Part shown: positions 9,874 through 25,012 of the stretch, one piece after another | Layout of the letters: each line of letters begins with the position of its first letter | How positions within the stretch are numbered: position 1 is the stretch's first letter | Origin: an uncultured Verrucomicrobiae bacterium | GTDB lineage: Bacteria; Verrucomicrobiota; Verrucomicrobiia; Palsa-1439 | Assembly (NCBI GenBank): GCA_963836315.1 | Contig: CAWIJG010000002.1 | Coordinates: 1,447,786 to 1,511,785, forward strand | DNA length: 64,000 nucleotides | Direction of reading: 5' to 3' | The notes under the pieces: model-generated | Database searches by the model: none | Seen by the model: the letters and a program-made list of their open reading frames with translations, nothing else | What the model was told of the DNA's origin: nothing | Position numbers and translations under genes: made by a program

Positions 9874-11802
9874 TCACAGCCCTGAGTCGAGTACCGAACG
9901 GACGAGCCGGTTGAGCGCCTCAGCGTTGTAGGGTTTTTGCAGGTAACCGAGGCAGCCGTGGCGCAACATGCGTTCGCCTTCCTGATCGTGGCTGTAGCCG
10001 CTGGATACGATGACACGCACATCCGGGTTGATTTCCTTAATGTGTGCAAAGAGTTCGGGTCCGCTGACCTGCGGCATCGCCATGTCGGCAATCACCAAAT
10101 CGATTTCCTTCTGATGCTCGCGGTACGTCGAGAGCGCCGCCGCGCCGTCCGGCGCGCTGAGCACCTTGTAGCCCTTCGCTTCGAGGCCGATCTGCGCCAT
10201 TTCGCGGATCACATCCTCGTCCTCGGCCAGCAGGATGCACTCTTGGCCGCCGCGCGTTTTCGCTTCCGTTGGCACAAGTGTTTTGCTCGGGGTCTTCTGG
10301 GATGCCGGGAGGAAAACCTCAAACAACGTTCCCTGACCTGGTTTTGATTCAACTCGCAATTCACCGCCGGCACCTTTCACGATGCTGAGCACCATCGATA
10401 GCCCAAGCCCCGTGCCTTTGCCCGGCCGTTTGGTGGTGAAGAAGGGCACGAACACGCGCGCGAGCGTCGCTACATCCATGCCGCATCCCGTGTCGCGGAA
10501 CCCGAGGGTGACGTAATCGCCATCCGGCAGGGAAAGCGCGGGGCGGAACGGATCGGACGCATCCAGGTGCACGTTGCAGGTCGTAATCGTGAAGATGCCG
10601 CCTTCGGGCATGGCGTCGCGTGCGTTGACGGCGATGTTGAGGAAGACCTGCTCGAGTTGAGATGGATCAACCTCGATAGGATGGAGATCCCCGGCAAACT
10701 GGCGCTGAATGAGGATCGATTTGTCGAAACTGCGATCGAGCATCTTGAGAGTCTGCTCGATACAGTCGTTGGGGTTGATCACGGTTAAGCGCGGCCCTTC
10801 CCGCCGAGCGAAAGCGAGCAACTGTTTCGTCAGTGCCGCACCGCGGTGCGCGCTGGCCTCCGTCGCCTCCAGGTACCGATACGTCGGGCTGGACGGGTCA
10901 GTCTGTAGTTTCACATAACTGGCGCACGCAAGAATCGCCGCGAGCACGTTGTTGAAATCATGCGCAATGCCGCTCGTCAGGGCGCCGATGGACTCGATCT
11001 TCTGCATTTGGACGAGGTCGCGGTACAACTCCTCGGCTTGCACGGCGCCGGCAACGATGTTAGCGACGGTTTGCATTTCCGCGGCCAACGACTGCGAAAT
11101 TTCCCGGGAGCTGCGGTAAAAGACGCCGATGAGACCGACAAGTTCCTTGCGGCGGACAACAGGGCTTAGCACGGCGCAGGCGATTCGCTCGCGCTCACAG
11201 ACCTTGGCCAATCCGGCCGGGGCAGCTTGGGCTGCATTGAGGAGAACAAGTTGATGTGGGTCGGTGTGCATTTGTTCGAACGCGGGAAGCGACCAGTCCG
11301 CCGCTCCGAGTTGTCCGAAACTGTGTGCTGTGAACCCGAACGCTCCCTTGAGGATGAACTGTGTCAGGCCGTTTTTCTCGGTCACCCAGGTGGCCACGAC
11401 ATCGGCCTCAAAAAGCTGCGCGATTTCTTCGAGCACCTCCTGCGAGATTTGCGCGACGTCGAGTTTATCGATTAAGGCGCGCGAGATCTGGTTCAGCGTC
11501 GATTGCCGCTGGAAGGCGAGGCGTTGGGAAAGTTCGATCTCGCGAAGACGGGTGGCCTGAAGTTCCTCATGGTTTCGTTGGACGCGTTGGACGTATAGGC
11601 AGGTTTCGGCCGCAGAGAGTGAGATCAGCAGCAACGAGGCGCTGCTCAACGGGAGACTGACCTGGACCCACGAATCACTATCGTTGTTGAGTCGCCCGAT
11701 GAGCATGTAGGAGAGCGTGATCACCAGCGCCATTCCGTAGAGTCGCGCGCGTGGCGACCGGTCCCGGGTGTTGCAACTTTTGGCGGTTGGATGTTGCGCC
11801 AT
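9874..11802 (-). CDS. Membrane hybrid sensor histidine kinase (GAF-HisKA-HATPase-REC)
   Basis: Two N-terminal hydrophobic segments, GAF-like region, SGIAHDFNN H-box, NIAVNARDAM, FFTTKRPGKGTGLGL, receiver domain (LLAEDE...DMAMP...LQKP). Confidence 0.93.
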   Translation of the reverse strand: MAQHPTAKSCNTRDRSPRARLYGMALVITLSYMLIGRLNNDSDSWVQVSLPLSSASLLLISLSAAETCLYVQRVQRNHEELQATRLREIELSQRLAFQRQSTLNQISRALIDKLDVAQISQEVLEEIAQLFEADVVATWVTEKNGLTQFILKGAFGFTAHSFGQLGAADWSLPAFEQMHTDPHQLVLLNAAQAAPAGLAKVCERERIACAVLSPVVRRKELVGLIGVFYRSSREISQSLAAEMQTVANIVAGAVQAEELYRDLVQMQKIESIGALTSGIAHDFNNVLAAILACASYVKLQTDPSSPTYRYLEATEASAHRGAALTKQLLAFARREGPRLTVINPNDCIEQTLKMLDRSFDKSILIQRQFAGDLHPIEVDPSQLEQVFLNIAVNARDAMPEGGIFTITTCNVHLDASDPFRPALSLPDGDYVTLGFRDTGCGMDVATLARVFVPFFTTKRPGKGTGLGLSMVLSIVKGAGGELRVESKPGQGTLFEVFLPASQKTPSKTLVPTEAKTRGGQECILLAEDEDVIREMAQIGLEAKGYKVLSAPDGAAALSTYREHQKEIDLVIADMAMPQVSGPELFAHIKEINPDVRVIVSSGYSHDQEGERMLRHGCLGYLQKPYNAEALNRLVRSVLDSGL

Positions 11803-12140: not shown

Positions 12141-13067
12141 ATGAAACGTAGAACACGATTGTGGCTCCGATTCATACTGATCCTGATGTTGGCAGGAGGC
12201 GTGTATCTATTGCTGCGCAACTACGAGCAGGAGTTCGTCTATGCTCCGAGTGCGTTCCTGCAGAAGACGCCCCGGGAAGCCGAGATGGCCTTCGACAACA
12301 TTGCTCTCGTGGCGGACGATGGCGTCAACATTCAAGGGTGGTTTGTCCCGGCGCAGCCGCTGGAGCAAGAAGTGCCCGCGACCAATTCGATGCCTCCCAC
12401 GCTGCTGTTCTTCCACGGAAAAACGGGCAACATCGGCGATTGCCTCGAAAAGATCCATTTCTTTCACGACATGGGACTAAACGTGTTTATCATCGACTAC
12501 CATGGTTACGGCAAGAGCGGTGGCGCTCCGACCGAGCGCGCCCTGACCGGCGACGCACTGGCGGCTTACTTCTACCTCGTTGAGAAACGCGGCGTGAAGC
12601 CCGAGCGTCTATACATTTACGGCGAAGACCTCGGGGCGGCGGTGGGCATCGATCTGGCGGCCAGGGTTCCGGCGGCGGGGTTGATCACGGAAGGCGCGAA
12701 TGCATCGATCATCGAGAAAATCGAAGACGACTGGCCGTTGATTCCGTGGCAATTCCTGCTTCGCAACCAATTCGATTCTCTCACCAGGATCCGCGACGTC
12801 CATATCCCCATCTTGCTGATCCACAGCGCCGAGGATGAGCTGGTGCCATTCAACAGTTCGCGTCGCCTCTGCGCGCTGGCGCACGACCCGAAGGAACTCG
12901 TTGAGATTCACGGCACGCATGACGGCGCGTTCATCAAGTCGTTCGACGTGTACTACGACAAGATCGAGCATTTCGTGCGCGAACAATCCAAAGACAAATC
13001 TGCTGACACCGCTTTCTCTTCCTCAACGCAAACCAATGCGCCGGCGTCCAAAGAATCGACGCCATGA
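12141..13067 (+). CDS. Membrane-anchored alpha/beta hydrolase (ABHD13/BEM46-like)
   Basis: N-terminal TM, LFFHGKTGNI, IDYHGYGKSGG, nucleophile elbow reading YGEDLGAA (Asp where Ser is usual), IHSAEDELVP, HGTH. Confidence 0.85.
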   Translation: MKRRTRLWLRFILILMLAGGVYLLLRNYEQEFVYAPSAFLQKTPREAEMAFDNIALVADDGVNIQGWFVPAQPLEQEVPATNSMPPTLLFFHGKTGNIGDCLEKIHFFHDMGLNVFIIDYHGYGKSGGAPTERALTGDALAAYFYLVEKRGVKPERLYIYGEDLGAAVGIDLAARVPAAGLITEGANASIIEKIEDDWPLIPWQFLLRNQFDSLTRIRDVHIPILLIHSAEDELVPFNSSRRLCALAHDPKELVEIHGTHDGAFIKSFDVYYDKIEHFVREQSKDKSADTAFSSSTQTNAPASKESTP

Positions 13068-14830
13068 TCCGAACGATCGCGCTGGTAACGGTTTTACTGC
13101 TGGGCGTATTGCGCCCCGCGCCGGCGGCCGACACCCTGCGGCCTGAGCAACTCAAGCCGGGGATGAAGGGATACGGCCTGTCGGTGTTCAAGGGCACCAA
13201 ACCCGAACGATTTGAGGTGGAAGTCGTCGGTGTGTTGAAAAACGCCCTACCCAAGCAGGACATGATCCTGATCCGCATGAGCGGCGCCGACCTTGAGAAA
13301 CACAAGGTCATCGCGGGGATGAGCGGCAGTCCGGTATACATCGACGACAAGCTGATTGGTGCGCTCGCCTACGGCTGGACATTCGAGAACGAACCGCTGG
13401 CGGGCGTCACGCCAATCCACAATATGATGGCACAATTGAAGAGACCCTACCTGTCGCCTTCGCCGGTCACCACGTCCGTCTCGCTCAGTCGTTCGTCATC
13501 GACGCCGTCGCTGTTCGCGTTGCCGAATGCGGCTCTCTCTCGCGCGGCGGAGGATTTCGACACCCCGCGTCCTCTTCTGACACCTCTTTCGCTTGGCGGA
13601 TTCAGCCCGCGTGTAATCGGGCAGATTGCCTCCCGGTTCACAGGCATCGGGATGATGCCGGTCGCGGCTGGTGGCGCGGGAGGCGTGGCGTTGCCGCGCC
13701 GGAGCGGCGACATCGAAGCCGGCGGCTCGATCGGCGTGCAGTTGATCCGTGGCGATCTTAACGCGACAGCCGTCGGCACGGCCACCTACGTGGAGAAGAA
13801 CCGGATTCTTGCGTTCGGCCATCCGTTTTTCCAAGGCGGCTCGGTGCAGGCCCCGGCGGTATTGGCCGAGGTGCAGATCATCATGTCGAGTGTGGAACGT
13901 TCGTTCAAGCTGGCCACTCCCGTCGCCGAGATCGGTTCGATGGTGGGTGACTGGCAGAGCTGCATCGTCGCGGACGCGAAGGTGCAAGCGAAGATGATTC
14001 CGGTGAGCATCGACGCCGCCAACCACGACATGGGCCAGTCGGAACATTATGACGTCGAGGTGATGGAGAATCAGATGTTCACCCCTCAACTCGTGATTGC
14101 GGCGATCGCGGAGAGCGTCACGGCCGCATCGGGTTCCTCACAGGACACCACCGCGCGGATTTCCGTAAGCGCCGAGTTGGGGCCGACAAAGTCGGGCGGG
14201 TCGGCGCGTACGATTACCGTGGCCAACACCTTTTTCAACCCGGGCGGCGGGCTTCTCGACTTCGAGGCGCTGATGCCGCTCGTCGCGATGTTCAACACGC
14301 CGTTCGGCAGCCCGACGGTGAAACGCGTGGACGTGACAGTGGGCGCGTCGCTTACCCGTCAGACCGCCGAGATCAAGCGCGCCTACTTCAGCAAATCGGA
14401 AGTGGAGCGCGGCGAAACGGTCCCGCTCACCGTCGTGATTAAACCGTTCGGGCGGCCGGAGGTCACGAAAACGATTCCCATCCAGGTTCCGGCGGCCACC
14501 GACATGATGCGCCAACTTGCGGTGGCGGTGATTGCCGGCGGCAACGCGCCGACAGATGCCGCGCCGCCCGATAGTCTTGACGATTATCTCGACGTAATCC
14601 AAAAGGAGCATCGCAATACGGATTTAGTCGCGCTGTTGCCGACCGCCAGCCAGGGGATGCAGTACCACGGCAAACTGCTGAAGAAACTTCCGCCCAGCGT
14701 CGTCGGCATTCTCAACGACTCCAGCACCGGTGACGTGGGGGTGGGCGCGGACATTGTGCAACTGGTGGAACCGACCGATTGGGTGCTCAGCGGGCAAGCC
14801 ACAGTCCGCGTCCCGATCCGACAGGAATGA
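13064..14830 (+). CDS. Exported SpoIVB-like (S55) peptidase-domain protein
   Basis: Signal peptide; GYGLSVFKGTKPERFEVEVVGV, IAGMSGSPVY, VGTATYV...AFGHPF; overlaps the upstream stop (ATGA). Confidence 0.85.
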   Translation: MIRTIALVTVLLLGVLRPAPAADTLRPEQLKPGMKGYGLSVFKGTKPERFEVEVVGVLKNALPKQDMILIRMSGADLEKHKVIAGMSGSPVYIDDKLIGALAYGWTFENEPLAGVTPIHNMMAQLKRPYLSPSPVTTSVSLSRSSSTPSLFALPNAALSRAAEDFDTPRPLLTPLSLGGFSPRVIGQIASRFTGIGMMPVAAGGAGGVALPRRSGDIEAGGSIGVQLIRGDLNATAVGTATYVEKNRILAFGHPFFQGGSVQAPAVLAEVQIIMSSVERSFKLATPVAEIGSMVGDWQSCIVADAKVQAKMIPVSIDAANHDMGQSEHYDVEVMENQMFTPQLVIAAIAESVTAASGSSQDTTARISVSAELGPTKSGGSARTITVANTFFNPGGGLLDFEALMPLVAMFNTPFGSPTVKRVDVTVGASLTRQTAEIKRAYFSKSEVERGETVPLTVVIKPFGRPEVTKTIPIQVPAATDMMRQLAVAVIAGGNAPTDAAPPDSLDDYLDVIQKEHRNTDLVALLPTASQGMQYHGKLLKKLPPSVVGILNDSSTGDVGVGADIVQLVEPTDWVLSGQATVRVPIRQE

Positions 14831-14837
14831 TCAACCA

Positions 14838-17051
14838 ATGAGAATACTCGCCCTCCTTTTCCTTTCATCTTTCCTCCTTCACTCGTCCGCCTTCGCGGTG
14901 AAAACCGAGCGTTGGGAGATGAAGACGCCACAGGACTTCATGAACGGCAAGTTGCAGCGGCTCATCGTCACCAGCAATGGCGAATTGCGGCTCGGCTACG
15001 ACACCACGAAACTTGGCGAATTTGCCAAGGAGATTTGGTGCTCGGCGGTGGGACGCGACGGCACGATTTACTTCGGCACGGGATCGCCGGCCGATGTCTA
15101 TGCGCTCGGCAAGGATGGCAAAACGATGAAGCTCTTCTCCGCCGACTCGATTGCCGTGACCGCGCTGGCGCTCGATTTGCGGGGCAATCTCTACGCGGCC
15201 ACCATGCCCGAGGGCAGGATTTACAAGGTCCCCACGAGCGGCAAGGCAGCCGAAGTGAAGACGGATGAACCGTTCAGCAAACTGCGCGCCCCGTATATCT
15301 GGTCGCTCGTTGTGGACAAGCAGGGCCAGCTCTTCGCGGGCACGGGCCCGGACGGGAAGGTTTTCTCCATCGGTACGGATGGCAAAGCGGAGGAATGGTT
15401 TGCGGCGGAGGATTCCAACATCCTGTGTCTGGCGTTGGATGCCGAGGGGGCGTTGCTGGCGGGTGGCAGCGACCGCGGTTCGCTCTACCGGATCACAAGG
15501 AAAGGCCAGGCGGTGGTGCTTCACGAATTCGCGGAGGACGAGGTGAAGGTGATTGCGGTGAGCGGTAACGAAGTCTATATCGGCGTGAACAAGCAAAAGA
15601 CGAGACGTCCACGAGGGGCGGTGGGACGACGCCCGAGCGCGGCGGAATTCGAGGATCTCACACAGCGATTGACCGGCCAGTTCGGTGCGGCGACGACCCC
15701 GGAAACGCTGGGGCGCGACCGCGAGACGCCGCCCGAAGCGCGCCTGGCGAACCTGCTCACGGGGACGCTCTACGTGCGGCACACGGATGGACGTGTCGAC
15801 CGGCTGGCGAATTGGGACAATGAATCTGTGTTGGATCTGAAAGTTGAAGGCGAGGGCTCCGTCGTGGTGGGCATGGCGGGCAAGGGCCGCGTGTACCGCG
15901 TGCGCGACAGCCAGAATTGGGAGTTACTGTTCGATTTTGACGAGCAACTGGCGCTGACGCTCGGGCTACGCGACGGCAACCTGGCGTTCGTCGGCACCGG
16001 CAACATCGGCAACGGATACGCCATCGACCCGCAAAAGGCGCGGGACGGCGAGTTGACGAGTGAAGTCCACGACTGCCGTTTCTCCACGACCTGGGGCAAT
16101 CTCATGTGGATGGGCAGCGGGGCCATCACGGTCGCCACGCGCACGGGCAACACGGCGTTGCCCGACCCGACGTGGTCGGAGTGGTCGGAGCCGTTGAAAA
16201 CCTCACCCGCAAAAGTGACCAGCCCGCGCGGGCGATTCATCCAGGTGCGCGCCCGTCTGGCTACCGCTTCCGAGCCGGTGCTGCAATCGTTGAGCTTGTA
16301 TTACCGGATGCAGAACCAGAAACCCGAAATCTCATCCGTCGAGATTGGGGACAAGCCGAAACCGACGGAGAAGCCGAAGGCCGGTCCGCAAAGCGATTCG
16401 AAGACGGCAGGCGGCGACACCAGCGACGCTGTCTCGGTCAACGGCGCCGCCATCCAACTCGCAACGTCAACGACGCCGACGGAGGAAGCCCGTCCTAAAC
16501 CCGCCAACCCGATCAAGGAGATTCGCTGGCACGCCAACGATAAGGACGGCGACACGCTGGTGTATCGGCTGTTTTACCAGGCAGACGGCGATGACGCATG
16601 GGTGGCCGCGTTCCTGGAGAAGCCGTTGAAGAAGACCGAGTATTCATGGGACACGGAGTCCATCCCCGACGGGTGGTATCGGATCAAGGTCGTCGCCAGC
16701 GATGAGGAATCCAATCCTGCGGGAGAAGCGTTGACGGACGAGAAGGTCAGCGATCTACTCAAAGTGGATAATACACGGCCGCAAGTGCTGCAGCTTGCAT
16801 ACGACGCGCCGAATGGAATCCTCAAGGGAATCGCTCGCGACAACCTGAGCCTGATTCGCTACCTCGAATATTCGGTCGATGGCGGCGAATGGAAGTATTT
16901 CGCCCCGAAGGATGGCGTATTCGACGACCGCGAGGAAGCCTTCGAGGTGAAGCTCGGTGCGCTCGCGTCCGGCCCGCATTCCATCGCCGTCCGCGCAACC
17001 GATGAGGAGGGCAACGTCGGCGTCGAGAAGGTATCGGTAAAGGGAAAGTGA
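14838..17051 (+). CDS. Exported beta-propeller repeat protein with C-terminal FN3/Ig-like domains
   Basis: Start MRILALLFL at 14838; repeated G-x-I/L-Y-x-G-T blades; WSEWSEP motif; beta-rich C-terminal domains (YRIKVVASD, IAVRATDEEGN). Confidence 0.75.
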   Translation: MRILALLFLSSFLLHSSAFAVKTERWEMKTPQDFMNGKLQRLIVTSNGELRLGYDTTKLGEFAKEIWCSAVGRDGTIYFGTGSPADVYALGKDGKTMKLFSADSIAVTALALDLRGNLYAATMPEGRIYKVPTSGKAAEVKTDEPFSKLRAPYIWSLVVDKQGQLFAGTGPDGKVFSIGTDGKAEEWFAAEDSNILCLALDAEGALLAGGSDRGSLYRITRKGQAVVLHEFAEDEVKVIAVSGNEVYIGVNKQKTRRPRGAVGRRPSAAEFEDLTQRLTGQFGAATTPETLGRDRETPPEARLANLLTGTLYVRHTDGRVDRLANWDNESVLDLKVEGEGSVVVGMAGKGRVYRVRDSQNWELLFDFDEQLALTLGLRDGNLAFVGTGNIGNGYAIDPQKARDGELTSEVHDCRFSTTWGNLMWMGSGAITVATRTGNTALPDPTWSEWSEPLKTSPAKVTSPRGRFIQVRARLATASEPVLQSLSLYYRMQNQKPEISSVEIGDKPKPTEKPKAGPQSDSKTAGGDTSDAVSVNGAAIQLATSTTPTEEARPKPANPIKEIRWHANDKDGDTLVYRLFYQADGDDAWVAAFLEKPLKKTEYSWDTESIPDGWYRIKVVASDEESNPAGEALTDEKVSDLLKVDNTRPQVLQLAYDAPNGILKGIARDNLSLIRYLEYSVDGGEWKYFAPKDGVFDDREEAFEVKLGALASGPHSIAVRATDEEGNVGVEKVSVKGK

Positions 17052-17277
17052 TGCTATAGCAGTGCCAGATGTTTTGCGCAGGCATCCAAGGTGTCTTCGT
17101 CTGGTGCTGAGAGCTTCGAGCGGAAATGTCCGTTTTATAGGGCTGACACTGACGACAGACATTTTGACCGCTTGTGTCAATACTAAGGACTGACCCTTTC
17201 CAGCGCTCCGTTACCGGAATTGCTTGTCACCCAGCCAAGGCAGCAACCGGAGATTTCCGAGCAAGTCAACGTCACGG

Positions 17278-17531
17278 AACGGCAGAGACCCTTCGACAAG
17301 CTCAGGGTGACAAACCGGGGAGGAAATCGGACACTACACCGGGGACGGCCCGCGCTCGGCGAGCGCGGCTACAAGGGGCAAACCTGCCAAACGAAAGGCA
17401 ACGACAGAGACCCTTCGACAAGCTCAGGGTGGCAAACCGGGGGGAAATCGGACACTACACCGGAAACGACCGACGCTCATAGAGCGCCGCTACGAGAGGC
17501 GGACCTACCAAACGAAAGGCAACGGCAGAGA
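17278..17531. repeat. Tandem array of about 121-122-bp units (two full copies plus the start of a third)
   Basis: Units start at 17278, 17400 and 17521. They share cagagacccttcgacaagctcagggt..caaaccgggg..gaaatcggacactacaccgg and ccaaacgaaaggca; each full unit contains a hairpin followed by CTAC. Confidence 0.9.
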
Positions 17532-17786
17532 TTTGCCGCAGACGACAGCGGCGTCTCGTCGGACTCGGCTTTCGACAAGCTCAGGATGACAGACAGGGAA
17601 GGGGTAGGCGTTAGGCGGACGTTGGCGAGTATCGGGAATCGATAGTTTTTGCTGGACGGGGCGGGGTCGGTGGTGGTATAGGGGCGATAGTTGTTTGAAA
17701 TAGGACGGTCGGTTTGAAAGACGGCGCTCAGAGGCGGCCGAGACGGCCGCTACTACAATTGTGGCGTCGGTTGGGAGGGGGGAGTC

Positions 17787-17975
17787 CTATAAAAGTATGT
17801 TTTTGCGAAGCGAACCCAACTGAAAATTTCGCATCTATTTTGGCATTAACCAATTAAGTAAAATGATGGTTGGGTTCGGTCGACCGGACCGAACCCATTT
17901 TGAGGGGTGCCGGAAGCGTTTTGGTGTCGAAAACGGGGTGGTTTTGACCAAACCGAACCCAAAGCGAACCCAATT
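17787..17975. repeat. CGAACCCAAC inverted-repeat element, copy C (diverged)
   Basis: CGAACCCAAC at 17811-17820 and GTTGGGTTCG at 17869-17878 (48-nt spacer); more CGAACCCA motifs at 17890, 17954 and 17965; flanks resemble copy B. Confidence 0.8.
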
Positions 17976-18221
17976 CAAGGCACCGGGCGGCGGCAACTCC
18001 GAAAAGGATTCGCGAGCAGGCCCATGCTACACCGGGGCGGCTGGGACAGCCGCTACTACACGAGGGCAGGCAGCCGAAACTACAAGGGAGGTCGGGAAAC
18101 TGTGCCAGTACGAAGCATTGACTCTGTGGATTTGAATGAGGACATTACTTACGCCGCGTGAAGGCACGCTGACTACAACGACAGAGATGCTTCGACAAGC
18201 TCAGCATGACAGACTGATTGG

Positions 18222-18880
<659 letters not shown>

Positions 18881-18884
<4 letters not shown>

Positions 18885-20393
18885 TTCGGCGGCGGGATTA
18901 TTTGCGGTTGACGACGCAGAAGCTGGGACTGCGGAAGAAGCGGGCCGTATTTGCGATCCTTTCCGTTGCTCTCGGCGTGATTGTGGTGGTCAGTGTGAAT
19001 TCCCTGATGGAAGGCGTGCGCGATGTGGCCGTAAAGACGATTTGGACGGAGGAGATCGACCCCAACGTCATCCGGGTATACGCGGGAGAGAATCCGTACG
19101 AGTTTACGTCGCCCGAGGAGGGACAAAAGCAAAAGGCCAGGAAGCGGATGCAGTATTTGAGCGAGTCGGTGTTCGATGAGATTCGCGGCTGGTCCGGGGT
19201 CGAAGCCGCCGACCGGCCCGTCGTGGTGGCGCCCGTGAGCATCAGCGCATTCGGCAAGAGACCGCAGCCGGTTGCCGAGCTTCAGGGTGTGCCCGAGCCG
19301 ATGCTGCTGGAATACGTAACGGACCGCGCGCTGGTGACCGGCAGCACCAACTCGATCCCGCTCGTTGTCGGGGAGCGGGAGGTGCGATTGCGCTTCGATG
19401 AAAAGCGCGGCAAACTGGGGGACGACCCGGCGGGCGAAAAGAACCTGGCTGGGGCGGGAAGTGACCATCGTTCTCGGCGACAACTACGCGCGACTGTCGG
19501 GTTTCGCCTATGATTACGCCAAGCGCAAATACCAGCCGGTGAGCGGCGACGATGTGACGGCGCAACATGACGCCATGGAACGCAGCTTCCGCGGCATGTA
19601 TGATACGACGATCTTCAACACCACGCTCACGCTCAAAGGGCGGGTTGTCGGTTTCTGTCCGGGTAGCAAAGTGTTAATGCCGTTTGACACGGCCGTCATG
19701 TGCGAGAAGTGGCTCGACCAGCGCCGGCGCCTCGCCTTGCGAAATCCCCCACCCGCAACGGACGAGGTGGTGTACGGAGAACGCGGACGCCGCACGCCCA
19801 GATCGGGTGAATACACCGAGGGGGTCGTGCTGGTGAAGCCCGGCGCGGACATCGAGGCCGTGGCCAAACGCATCGAAGAGATGGGGTTTTCCGCGGCGAC
19901 GCGGGCGCGCACGTTCGAGAATCAGGCGCGCGCCTTTGACAGCACGGTGCGCATTGTGAAGCAAGTCGCGTTCGCGTTTGGCAGCTTGATTCTCGGGCTG
20001 GCGTGCGGGCTGGTATGGAGCACCACCTCCAAGACCGTGTCCGACAGCCGCGTCGATATCGGACTGTTCCGCGCGCTCGGCGCCACGAAGCGGGAGATTC
20101 GCCGCTTGTTTCTCGGCGAGGCGGTCTTGCAGGGGGTGCTCGGGACCGTGTTCGGAATGGTGTTGGGTTGGGCGCTGGCGATCGGGATCAGCCATTGGGT
20201 CATCAACTTCGCCCGAGGGCAGGTGTTTGACCCCGAAGAGGCGCTGCTCATCCCCGACTCGATTTTCTCCATCAATCTGAGATTTTGCCTCCTGCTGATC
20301 GTCGGCGCGGCGCTGGTTTCACTGCTGGCCGGTCTGCGGCCCGCCAATCGCGCCGCCAACATCGATCCCGTCAAGGCGCTGAAGAGGGAATAA
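18881..20393 (+). CDS. MacB/FtsX-family ABC permease, split by an apparent +1 frameshift near 19440
   Basis: N-terminal half (18881..19513, ILSVALGVIVVVSV) and C-terminal FtsX half (to 20393, IGLFRALGAT...AANIDPVKALKRE) lie in different frames; removing one base at GAAAAGAACC joins them. Confidence 0.8.
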
Positions 20394-24835: not shown

Positions 24836-24937
24836 TTCGAAACAACGCCACGCGTCAGCGGCGTAAGTTCGATACTCAATAGAATCGGCTTTTCTTTCGT
24901 CTGGAATTTCGCAGCGTATTCGTTCAGATTGAACGAT

Positions 24938-24995
24938 GGTGATGGGGTTCGCCTGCAACTGCCCCCGCGATGACGGGGCGCTAATGACTCCTACC
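24938..24995 (+). ncRNA. Fluoride riboswitch (crcB motif)
   Basis: GGTGATGGGGTTCGCC...GCTAATGACTCCTAC with an internal GCCCC/GGGGC stem, directly upstream of crcB. Confidence 0.92.
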
Positions 24996-25012
24996 ACGGT
25001 TGAGGGGATGCG

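Follow-up and report, generated by a model that had tools for sequence, protein, structure and literature searches.

The DNA considered here is a 64,000-nucleotide stretch (the window) from an uncultured Verrucomicrobiae bacterium (assembly GCA_963836315.1, contig CAWIJG010000002.1, positions 1,447,786 to 1,511,785 of the forward strand), and the protein in question, P0001, is the permuted S55-like protease encoded by its open reading frame (ORF) 13064-14830. P0001 is best explained as a clan PA serine endopeptidase (chymotrypsin fold) of SpoIVB/S55 descent, exported by the Sec route, in which the two six-stranded barrels of the catalytic domain would be encoded in reversed order, following a circular permutation with its breakpoint in the inter-barrel linker. 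We give this reading a probability of about 0.78 on the basis of sequence, from which we infer the three-dimensional active site and the activity. Barrel 1 (residues 30-125) would be the Ser barrel, with the GMSGSP motif and Ser87 as the nucleophile; a variable disordered linker and a small conserved β-α-β element (126-212) would join the old C- and N-termini; and barrel 2 (213-305) would be the His barrel, with His253 as the general base and the invariant Asp296 or Asp231 possibly orienting it. The barrels probably pack as in canonical PA proteases, with Ser87 and His253 meeting at the interface of an active enzyme. The permutation relative to SpoIVB had been proposed in a preliminary description of this DNA, and profile comparisons demonstrate it at the level of homology, each barrel being homologous to the SpoIVB barrel of opposite order.

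The gene and its serine half comprise the following features:

13064..14830, + strand: gene of P0001, permuted S55-like protease, 588 amino acids, stop codon included (ORF and homologues).

13064..13129, + strand: signal peptide, residues 1-22, MIRTIALVTVLLLGVLRPAPAA (read from the sequence; cleavage site putative).

13151..13438, + strand: barrel 1, residues 30-125, corresponding by homology to the Ser-bearing C-terminal barrel of S55/SpoIVB with its terminal helix (Pfam, PDB 9lnf, hhalign, model).

13316..13333, + strand: GMSGSP motif, with Ser87 (codon 13322-13324) aligned with the catalytic Ser378 of SpoIVB (alignments; invariant in 85 relatives).

The signal peptide is of the typical Sec type and lacks a lipobox Cys; residues 2-15 are helical in the model. 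The mature protein begins at about residue 23, and the Ser-bearing domain follows about 8 residues past the predicted end of the signal peptide. This early start of the Ser-bearing domain leaves no place for a His-bearing segment upstream of Ser87. The ORF translation places GMSGSP at residues 85-90 and AFGHPF at residues 250-255, and the positions of Ser87 (13322) and His253 (13820) in the preliminary description are exact. It could be argued that this order is an artefact of misassembly, of a wrong start codon or of a local rearrangement confined to this genome. Yet thousands of assemblies obtained independently, in several phyla, agree with it in order, length and motifs; barrel 1 comes directly after the signal peptide; and a complete hydrolase is encoded upstream. 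Together these refute an artefact, in favor of which nothing was found and whose probability is close to nil.

Only part of P0001 is recognized by family models. The Pfam family PF05580 (Peptidase_S55) matches residues 39-115 alone, through profile positions 126-202 of 210 (34.8 bits, E 2.2e-8, exceeding the Pfam gathering cut-off of 25 bits), and the SpoIVB equivalog TIGR02860 matches the same residues through positions 312-387 of 402, at 34 bits vs. a cut-off of 305. Searches of Pfam and NCBIfam found neither a PDZ domain nor any other family in P0001 at E<=1. In the SpoIVB structure 9LNF, P0001 matches chain residues 232-308, a span containing the S378A site, while a profile of 85 relatives matches PDB 9lnf over chain residues 230-319 (E 5e-10). 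When barrel 1 was compared by hhalign with the C-barrel of canonical SpoIVB, in an alignment built from 109 genomic loci, the match reached E 5.5e-25 at a probability of 99.6%, and GMSGSP of P0001 aligned with the GM(A/S)GAP of 9lnf and B. subtilis-group SpoIVB. Barrel 1 is modelled with six strands and a short helix after them, and GMSGSP stands between the third strand and the fourth; the C-terminal barrel in enzymes of the chymotrypsin fold is laid out in this way. With the full model, Foldseek gave a probability of 1.00 over about 100 columns to 9LNF, MucD, DegS, Rv3671c and picornaviral 3C proteases. Foldseek is a sequential aligner, and the whole model was aligned over one barrel only. 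The first domain of P0001 is the SpoIVB serine barrel.

For the histidine half, homology of residues ~213-305 to the S55 N-barrel is established through profile comparisons that pass by intermediate sequences. Two features are concerned:

13700..13978, + strand: barrel 2, residues 213-305, corresponding by homology to the His-bearing N-terminal barrel of S55/SpoIVB (iterative hidden Markov model (HMM) search, hhalign, Pfam match in P0275).

13820..13822, + strand: His253 codon (AFGH), aligned with the catalytic His236 of SpoIVB (ALGH) (alignments; invariant).

Genomes of the SpoIVB phylum also contain ORFs of 560-755 residues that match the C-half of S55 only and have the architecture of P0001, with a signal peptide, GMSGSP at around residue 95 and GH some 150 residues further on. 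One of these, P0275, aligns colinearly with P0001 along 466 residues (30% identity, E 1e-52), and the His motifs of the two are mutually aligned. PF05580 matches P0275 twice: first at residues 45-110, corresponding to profile positions 126-192, and then, as an isolated fragment, at residues ~232-303, corresponding to positions 13-84 (21.6 bits, E 2.4e-4 vs. all Pfam). The halves of the model are therefore present in reversed order in one protein. Furthermore, an HMM of the SpoIVB N-barrel finds both P0275 (E 4e-7) and P0276 (E 5e-6). In a jackhmmer-style iteration seeded with canonical SpoIVB N-barrels only, the database consisted of 157 family members and 314 shuffled or reversed decoys. Two real sequences were included in iteration 1 and 43 in iteration 2, in which residues 225-278 of P0001 appeared at E 0.003; in iteration 3 all 157 were included, with P0001 residues 218-301 at E 1.7e-16. 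None of the 314 decoys was included at any iteration (best decoy E 0.17-0.72 in iterations 1-3 and 7.4 in the fourth).

Profile-profile comparison gives the same picture. The top hhalign match of barrel 2 is the SpoIVB N-barrel (P 0.001-0.006), with a posterior alignment that is colinear over 65-100 columns. The reciprocal specificity is N-to-N (P 4e-4 to 1e-3), and the cross pairs give P 0.07 for the family barrel 2 with the SpoIVB C-barrel and P 0.14 for the family barrel 1 with the SpoIVB N-barrel. In a column-shuffle control, none of 200 shuffled profiles reached the true score of 23.8 (mean 12.0, standard deviation 2.6), and the reversed profile scored 11.9. The global mode of hhalign returned nothing useful, and residues 168-322 alone had no match in a single-sequence scan of Pfam. 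Artificial re-permutation of the sequence (barrel 2 followed by barrel 1) raised the S55 score from 34.8 to only 38.5 bits, in one stretch, which is not decisive.

Several observations weigh against the permuted-protease reading. Without intermediates, the similarity of barrel 2 of P0001 is weak (HMMER -2 to +3 bits, hhalign probability 6-35%); the second-best HMMER stretch is repeatedly AVGTATYVEKNRILAFGH against the His236 segment of SpoIVB, with negative scores, and the profile of 85 relatives takes the His motif as its second stretch among PDB sequences at -3.7 bits. The model of isolated barrel 2 is of low confidence (predicted local distance difference test, pLDDT, 64.7, with a fold reached in only one of five models). 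Its Foldseek matches are not significant (E>=0.26) and no more than suggestive, although PA proteases are often found among them (norovirus and foot-and-mouth disease virus 3C proteases, SplF, Umb trypsin-like subunits and 9LNF). In the full-length model the active-site loops reach a pLDDT of only 60-65. The third member of the triad is also uncertain, since Asp296 is aligned with the conserved Asn290 of B. subtilis-type SpoIVB.

Could P0001 then be a half- or pseudo-protease, in which only the Ser barrel comes from S55, while an unrelated second barrel has acquired a convergent GT.T...GH pattern and the whole serves as a non-catalytic binding or scaffold protein? Such an origin would agree with a direct similarity between barrel 2 of P0001 and SpoIVB that is not significant by itself, and with isolated-barrel Foldseek matches that are weak and include generic β-barrels such as PilZ and flavin-binding split barrels. 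It is nevertheless improbable: in colinear relatives, the curated Pfam S55 model matches the region of barrel 2 over 72 profile positions; the iteration seeded with N-barrels gathers all 157 family members and no decoys; the similarity extends colinearly beyond the motif alone; and a sole invariant His next to an invariant Ser motif would make little sense in a protein without catalytic function.

The conservation on which this last point draws was followed over a large family. At least 3606 homologues of P0001 were found, and an exhaustive search gave 6015 clusters (50% identity), of which 1799 reach E<=1e-30; the majority are 550-650 residues long and align over their full length. In 85 representatives with identities near 30%, the positions without variation include G85-M-S87-G-S-P90, G230-D231, G238-T239, G252-H253 and D296, and His253 is the only invariant histidine. 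Invariance across relatives this distant means that the motif pattern is not due to chance. Named members belong to the Verrucomicrobiia, a deltaproteobacterial metagenome-assembled genome, the Armatimonadota and the outer-membrane-bearing Firmicutes Halanaerobiales and Limnochordia, and the close homologues of P0001 are named Verrucomicrobiia/Verrucomicrobiae. Within the window's own phylum the distribution is patchy (10 of 121 genomes, in single copy). No canonical S55 protein was found in the window's genome, which holds a single S55 match. As for the SpoIVB phylum, many genomes (G044, G129, G011, G045, G077, G115 and others) encode a canonical SpoIVB alongside a permuted-family protein, which makes the two forms coexisting paralogous lineages and not replacements of one another.

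In the full-length model of P0001 (mean pLDDT 74.9, predicted template modelling score, pTM, 0.72), barrel 2 has a pLDDT of 75-87 and six strands. His253 comes after the third of them, and Asp296 a few residues ahead of the sixth (301-304); these are the strand positions of His57 and Asp102 in chymotrypsin. Two acidic residues come into question as partners of His253:

13949..13951, + strand: Asp296 codon, invariant, 43 residues past His253 and just ahead of the last barrel strand; candidate third triad residue (conservation, model; putative role).

13754..13756, + strand: Asp231 codon (RGD), invariant, aligned with Asp213 of SpoIVB; alternative acidic partner (alignment).

In the crystal structure of SpoIVB, His236 lies beside residue 378 and the traditionally assigned Asp363 is about 24 Å away, and the third residue of that enzyme is unsettled (PMC12502668). 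Judging from the alignment of Asp296 with Asn290 and of Asp231 with Asp213, the permuted family may have a more canonical triad than SpoIVB. A separate observation concerns SpoIVB itself: the canonical loci (L002-L111) carry a conserved Asn at the equivalent of Asp296 and Asp213 at the equivalent of Asp231, a correspondence of possible relevance to the disputed third catalytic residue in structure 9LNF.

Between the barrels, and after them, lie three further regions:

13439..13567, + strand: Ser/Pro/Thr-rich disordered linker, residues 126-168, joining the old C- and N-termini (pLDDT 29-46, AlphaFold2; unconserved).

13568..13699, + strand: conserved small β-α-β element, residues 169-212 (TPLSLGGFSP...), with P174 invariant; not a PDZ domain (model, conservation).

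13979..14827, + strand: C-terminal region, residues 306-588, about three α/β and β-sandwich domains (secondary structure; pLDDT mostly 75-94).

The Ser/Pro-rich linker noticed in the preliminary description is thus present and predicted to be disordered, and the roughly 300 amino acids of additional domains that it announced amount to some 280 residues after the second barrel. This C-terminal region has no Pfam match and no match among PDB sequences. The absence of a PDZ domain, also claimed there, holds as well: a PDZ remnant was sought in the linker and the C-terminal region and none was found, the hhalign comparison with the PDZ region of SpoIVB giving P 0.29. Duplication intermediates with an extra upstream N-barrel were sought too, and the N-terminal extensions of P0186, P0215 and P0230 are without the S55 N-half. 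The spacing from Ser to His varies between 109 and 301 residues across the family (median 166), and the linkers of family members share no conserved motif. Disorder, lack of conservation and variable length are what one expects where a circular permutation has tied the old termini together. The autoprocessing or regulatory role suggested for the linker, by comparison, finds no support in a segment so unconserved and so variable in length.

It is conceivable that P0001 is permuted as proposed and that its active site forms in trans, in a domain-swapped oligomer, or in a two-chain enzyme after self-cleavage of the linker. The linker is long, flexible and very variable in length, isolated barrel 2 folds poorly out of context, and SpoIVB is known to cleave itself near its own N-terminus (PMC12502668). 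Against this stand the full-length monomer model, with its pTM of 0.72 and the confidence reached by barrel 2 in that context, and a linker devoid of any conserved motif that could serve as a cleavage site. We regard assembly in trans or through self-cleavage as unlikely, albeit less so than the non-catalytic half-protease, and prefer the single-chain permuted protease.

How does P0001 compare with known enzymes? SpoIVB (MEROPS S55; PF05580; TIGR02860; PDB 9LNF) is the sigma-K checkpoint signalling protease of endospore-forming Firmicutes, where it cleaves SpoIVFA. P0001 resembles it in both barrels, with GMSGSP corresponding to Ser378, G-T-x-T...A-x-G-H to His236 and Asp231 to Asp213, in its predicted export, and probably in its mechanism as a Ser/His protease of the chymotrypsin fold. 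However, P0001 has the Ser barrel followed by the His barrel and is without a PDZ domain, whereas SpoIVB consists of a PDZ and then the protease domain. In P0001 a 90-residue linker and a β-α-β insert connect the old termini, and a 280-residue extension follows at the C-terminus; the permuted family has the invariant Asp296 where SpoIVB has Asn290; and the host is a non-sporulating Verrucomicrobium. Periplasmic PA-clan proteases of the S1C type (HtrA, DegS, DegP, MucD, Rv3671c) give an equally good one-barrel structural match (Foldseek probability 1.00), and a periplasmic location and a role in envelope quality control are plausible for P0001 as for them. They differ from it in their canonical His-Asp-Ser order and their C-terminal PDZ domains, and no match of P0001 to HtrA, DegS, DegP, MucD or Rv3671c was found at the sequence level.

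The family is already known as sequence, since databases label its members 'SpoIVB peptidase S55 domain-containing' and the serine half is recognized. What sets it apart is the reversed order, in a protein that is S55 by descent yet departs from the residue order defining its clan, and that is without the PDZ domain of SpoIVB. The chymotrypsin fold is among the most studied of enzyme folds, and the order His-Asp-Ser has been treated as a constant of clan PA. In P0001, Ser87 stands ahead of His253 instead of the canonical His ... Ser, and the Pfam stretches are permuted in its relatives. A literature search returned no description of reversed barrel order in S55 or in any other chymotrypsin-fold protease, the searchable literature being limited, so that absence from it is not proof. 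Tentatively, and with more doubt than confidence, one may go further and see here the first recognized natural circular permutation of the chymotrypsin (clan PA) fold, active through a Ser87-His253-Asp296 triad from swapped barrels; the family would then be a new, phylum-spanning group of envelope proteases of diderms that works with a β-propeller partner and with BAM/TAM, the machinery of outer-membrane assembly, with canonical SpoIVB as its sister lineage.

A large natural family with swapped barrels would offer a ready test of the part that chain connectivity plays in folding, zymogen-like regulation and catalysis. It also matters for annotation. Models of the PF05580 type see half of the catalytic domain, and members therefore bear the label 'S55 domain-containing' without a recognized His and may be mistaken for fragments or pseudo-proteases. 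The family is uncharacterized and present in outer-membrane-bearing lineages; its place beside TamB, BamA and Skp in diderm Firmicutes and its fusion to a secreted β-propeller elsewhere provide a testable lead to a new proteolytic function in the envelope or outer membrane, and a lead to the origin of the sporulation protease SpoIVB as well.

The gene of P0001 lies in a co-directional module (12141-20393), whose other members are:

12141..13067, + strand: α/β-hydrolase gene, 308 amino acids, complete; its stop overlaps the protease start by 4 nucleotides (nt) (also in L123/L124).

14838..17051, + strand: secreted β-propeller/fibronectin type III (FN3)-like protein, 7 nt past the protease stop (synteny; fused to the protease elsewhere).

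18222..20393, + strand: ATP-binding cassette (ABC) ATPase and MacB/FtsX-type permease after the module's first three genes; permease frame broken near 19444 (ORFs, homologue alignment).

The same five-gene order (hydrolase, protease, propeller, ABC ATPase, permease) surrounds a 62%-identical homologue (loci L123 and L124). In other organisms protease and propeller form a single polypeptide of 1280-1480 residues, and residues 734-1349 of one such protein, P0214, match the downstream gene at E 3e-61; this fusion argues for a physical partnership. The ~280-residue C-terminal domains and the β-propeller protein may recruit substrates for the enzyme, which would act in the periplasm or cell envelope, possibly in the biogenesis or quality control of outer-membrane proteins. 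On the genomic context, P0001 is best read as a periplasmic or envelope serine protease whose substrates would be selected by its C-terminal domains and its propeller partner.

The proposal of an outer-membrane role comes from the TamB-BamA-Skp neighborhood in a diderm Firmicute. In Halobacteroides halobius (CP003359.1; L122, 7001-15384), the family member P0293 is encoded directly upstream of TamB-BamA (POTRA/Omp85)-OmpH/Skp and downstream of the flagellar L/P-ring genes FlgH/FlgI. In diderm Firmicutes, the TamB-BamA-OmpH locus constitutes the gene cluster for outer-membrane biogenesis. Also reported from such a setting are two S55-domain proteins of other bacteria, whose membership in the permuted family is unverified: Vpar_0521 of Veillonella parvula belongs to the outer-membrane fraction (PMC5491611), and F7NM31 of Acetonema longum co-purified with BamA (PMC13018214). 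Compared by description only, both share with P0001 an N-terminal S55 annotation and a host with an outer membrane, while Vpar_0521 is described with a C-terminal DUF1090 (PMC5491611), an architecture not seen in the permuted family. A function in outer-membrane biogenesis or quality control is a lead and not a finding, and its dependence on gene neighborhood and on two papers about proteins of unverified membership is to be added to the points raised above against the overall reading.

Some features of the surrounding DNA deserve mention. Divergently upstream of the module, on the minus strand, lies a hybrid GAF histidine kinase-receiver gene (9874-11802). The permease gene (18881-20393) is spread over two frames: residues 1-187 of the intact 503-residue homologue at L123 align up to about 19444, and residues 188-503 (in the numbering of that homologue) in the next frame from about 19443. 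A sequencing error beside a run of G could account for the break at 19443-19445; otherwise it is a frameshift and the gene a pseudogene. In relatives the ABC genes come straight after the propeller gene, but in the window a non-coding gap of 1.1 kb (17052-18221) separates them. This gap contains a ~58-nt repeat (core TTCGACAAGCTCAGGGTGAC) in four copies, of which two fall within a ~120-nt tandem unit, together with an 18-nt palindrome at 17868-17895, and looks like an inserted repeat or a cluster of miniature elements. Further downstream, a fluoride riboswitch (crcB motif, RF01734) is found at 24929-25000 on the + strand, scoring 41.6 bits vs. a gathering score of 34.

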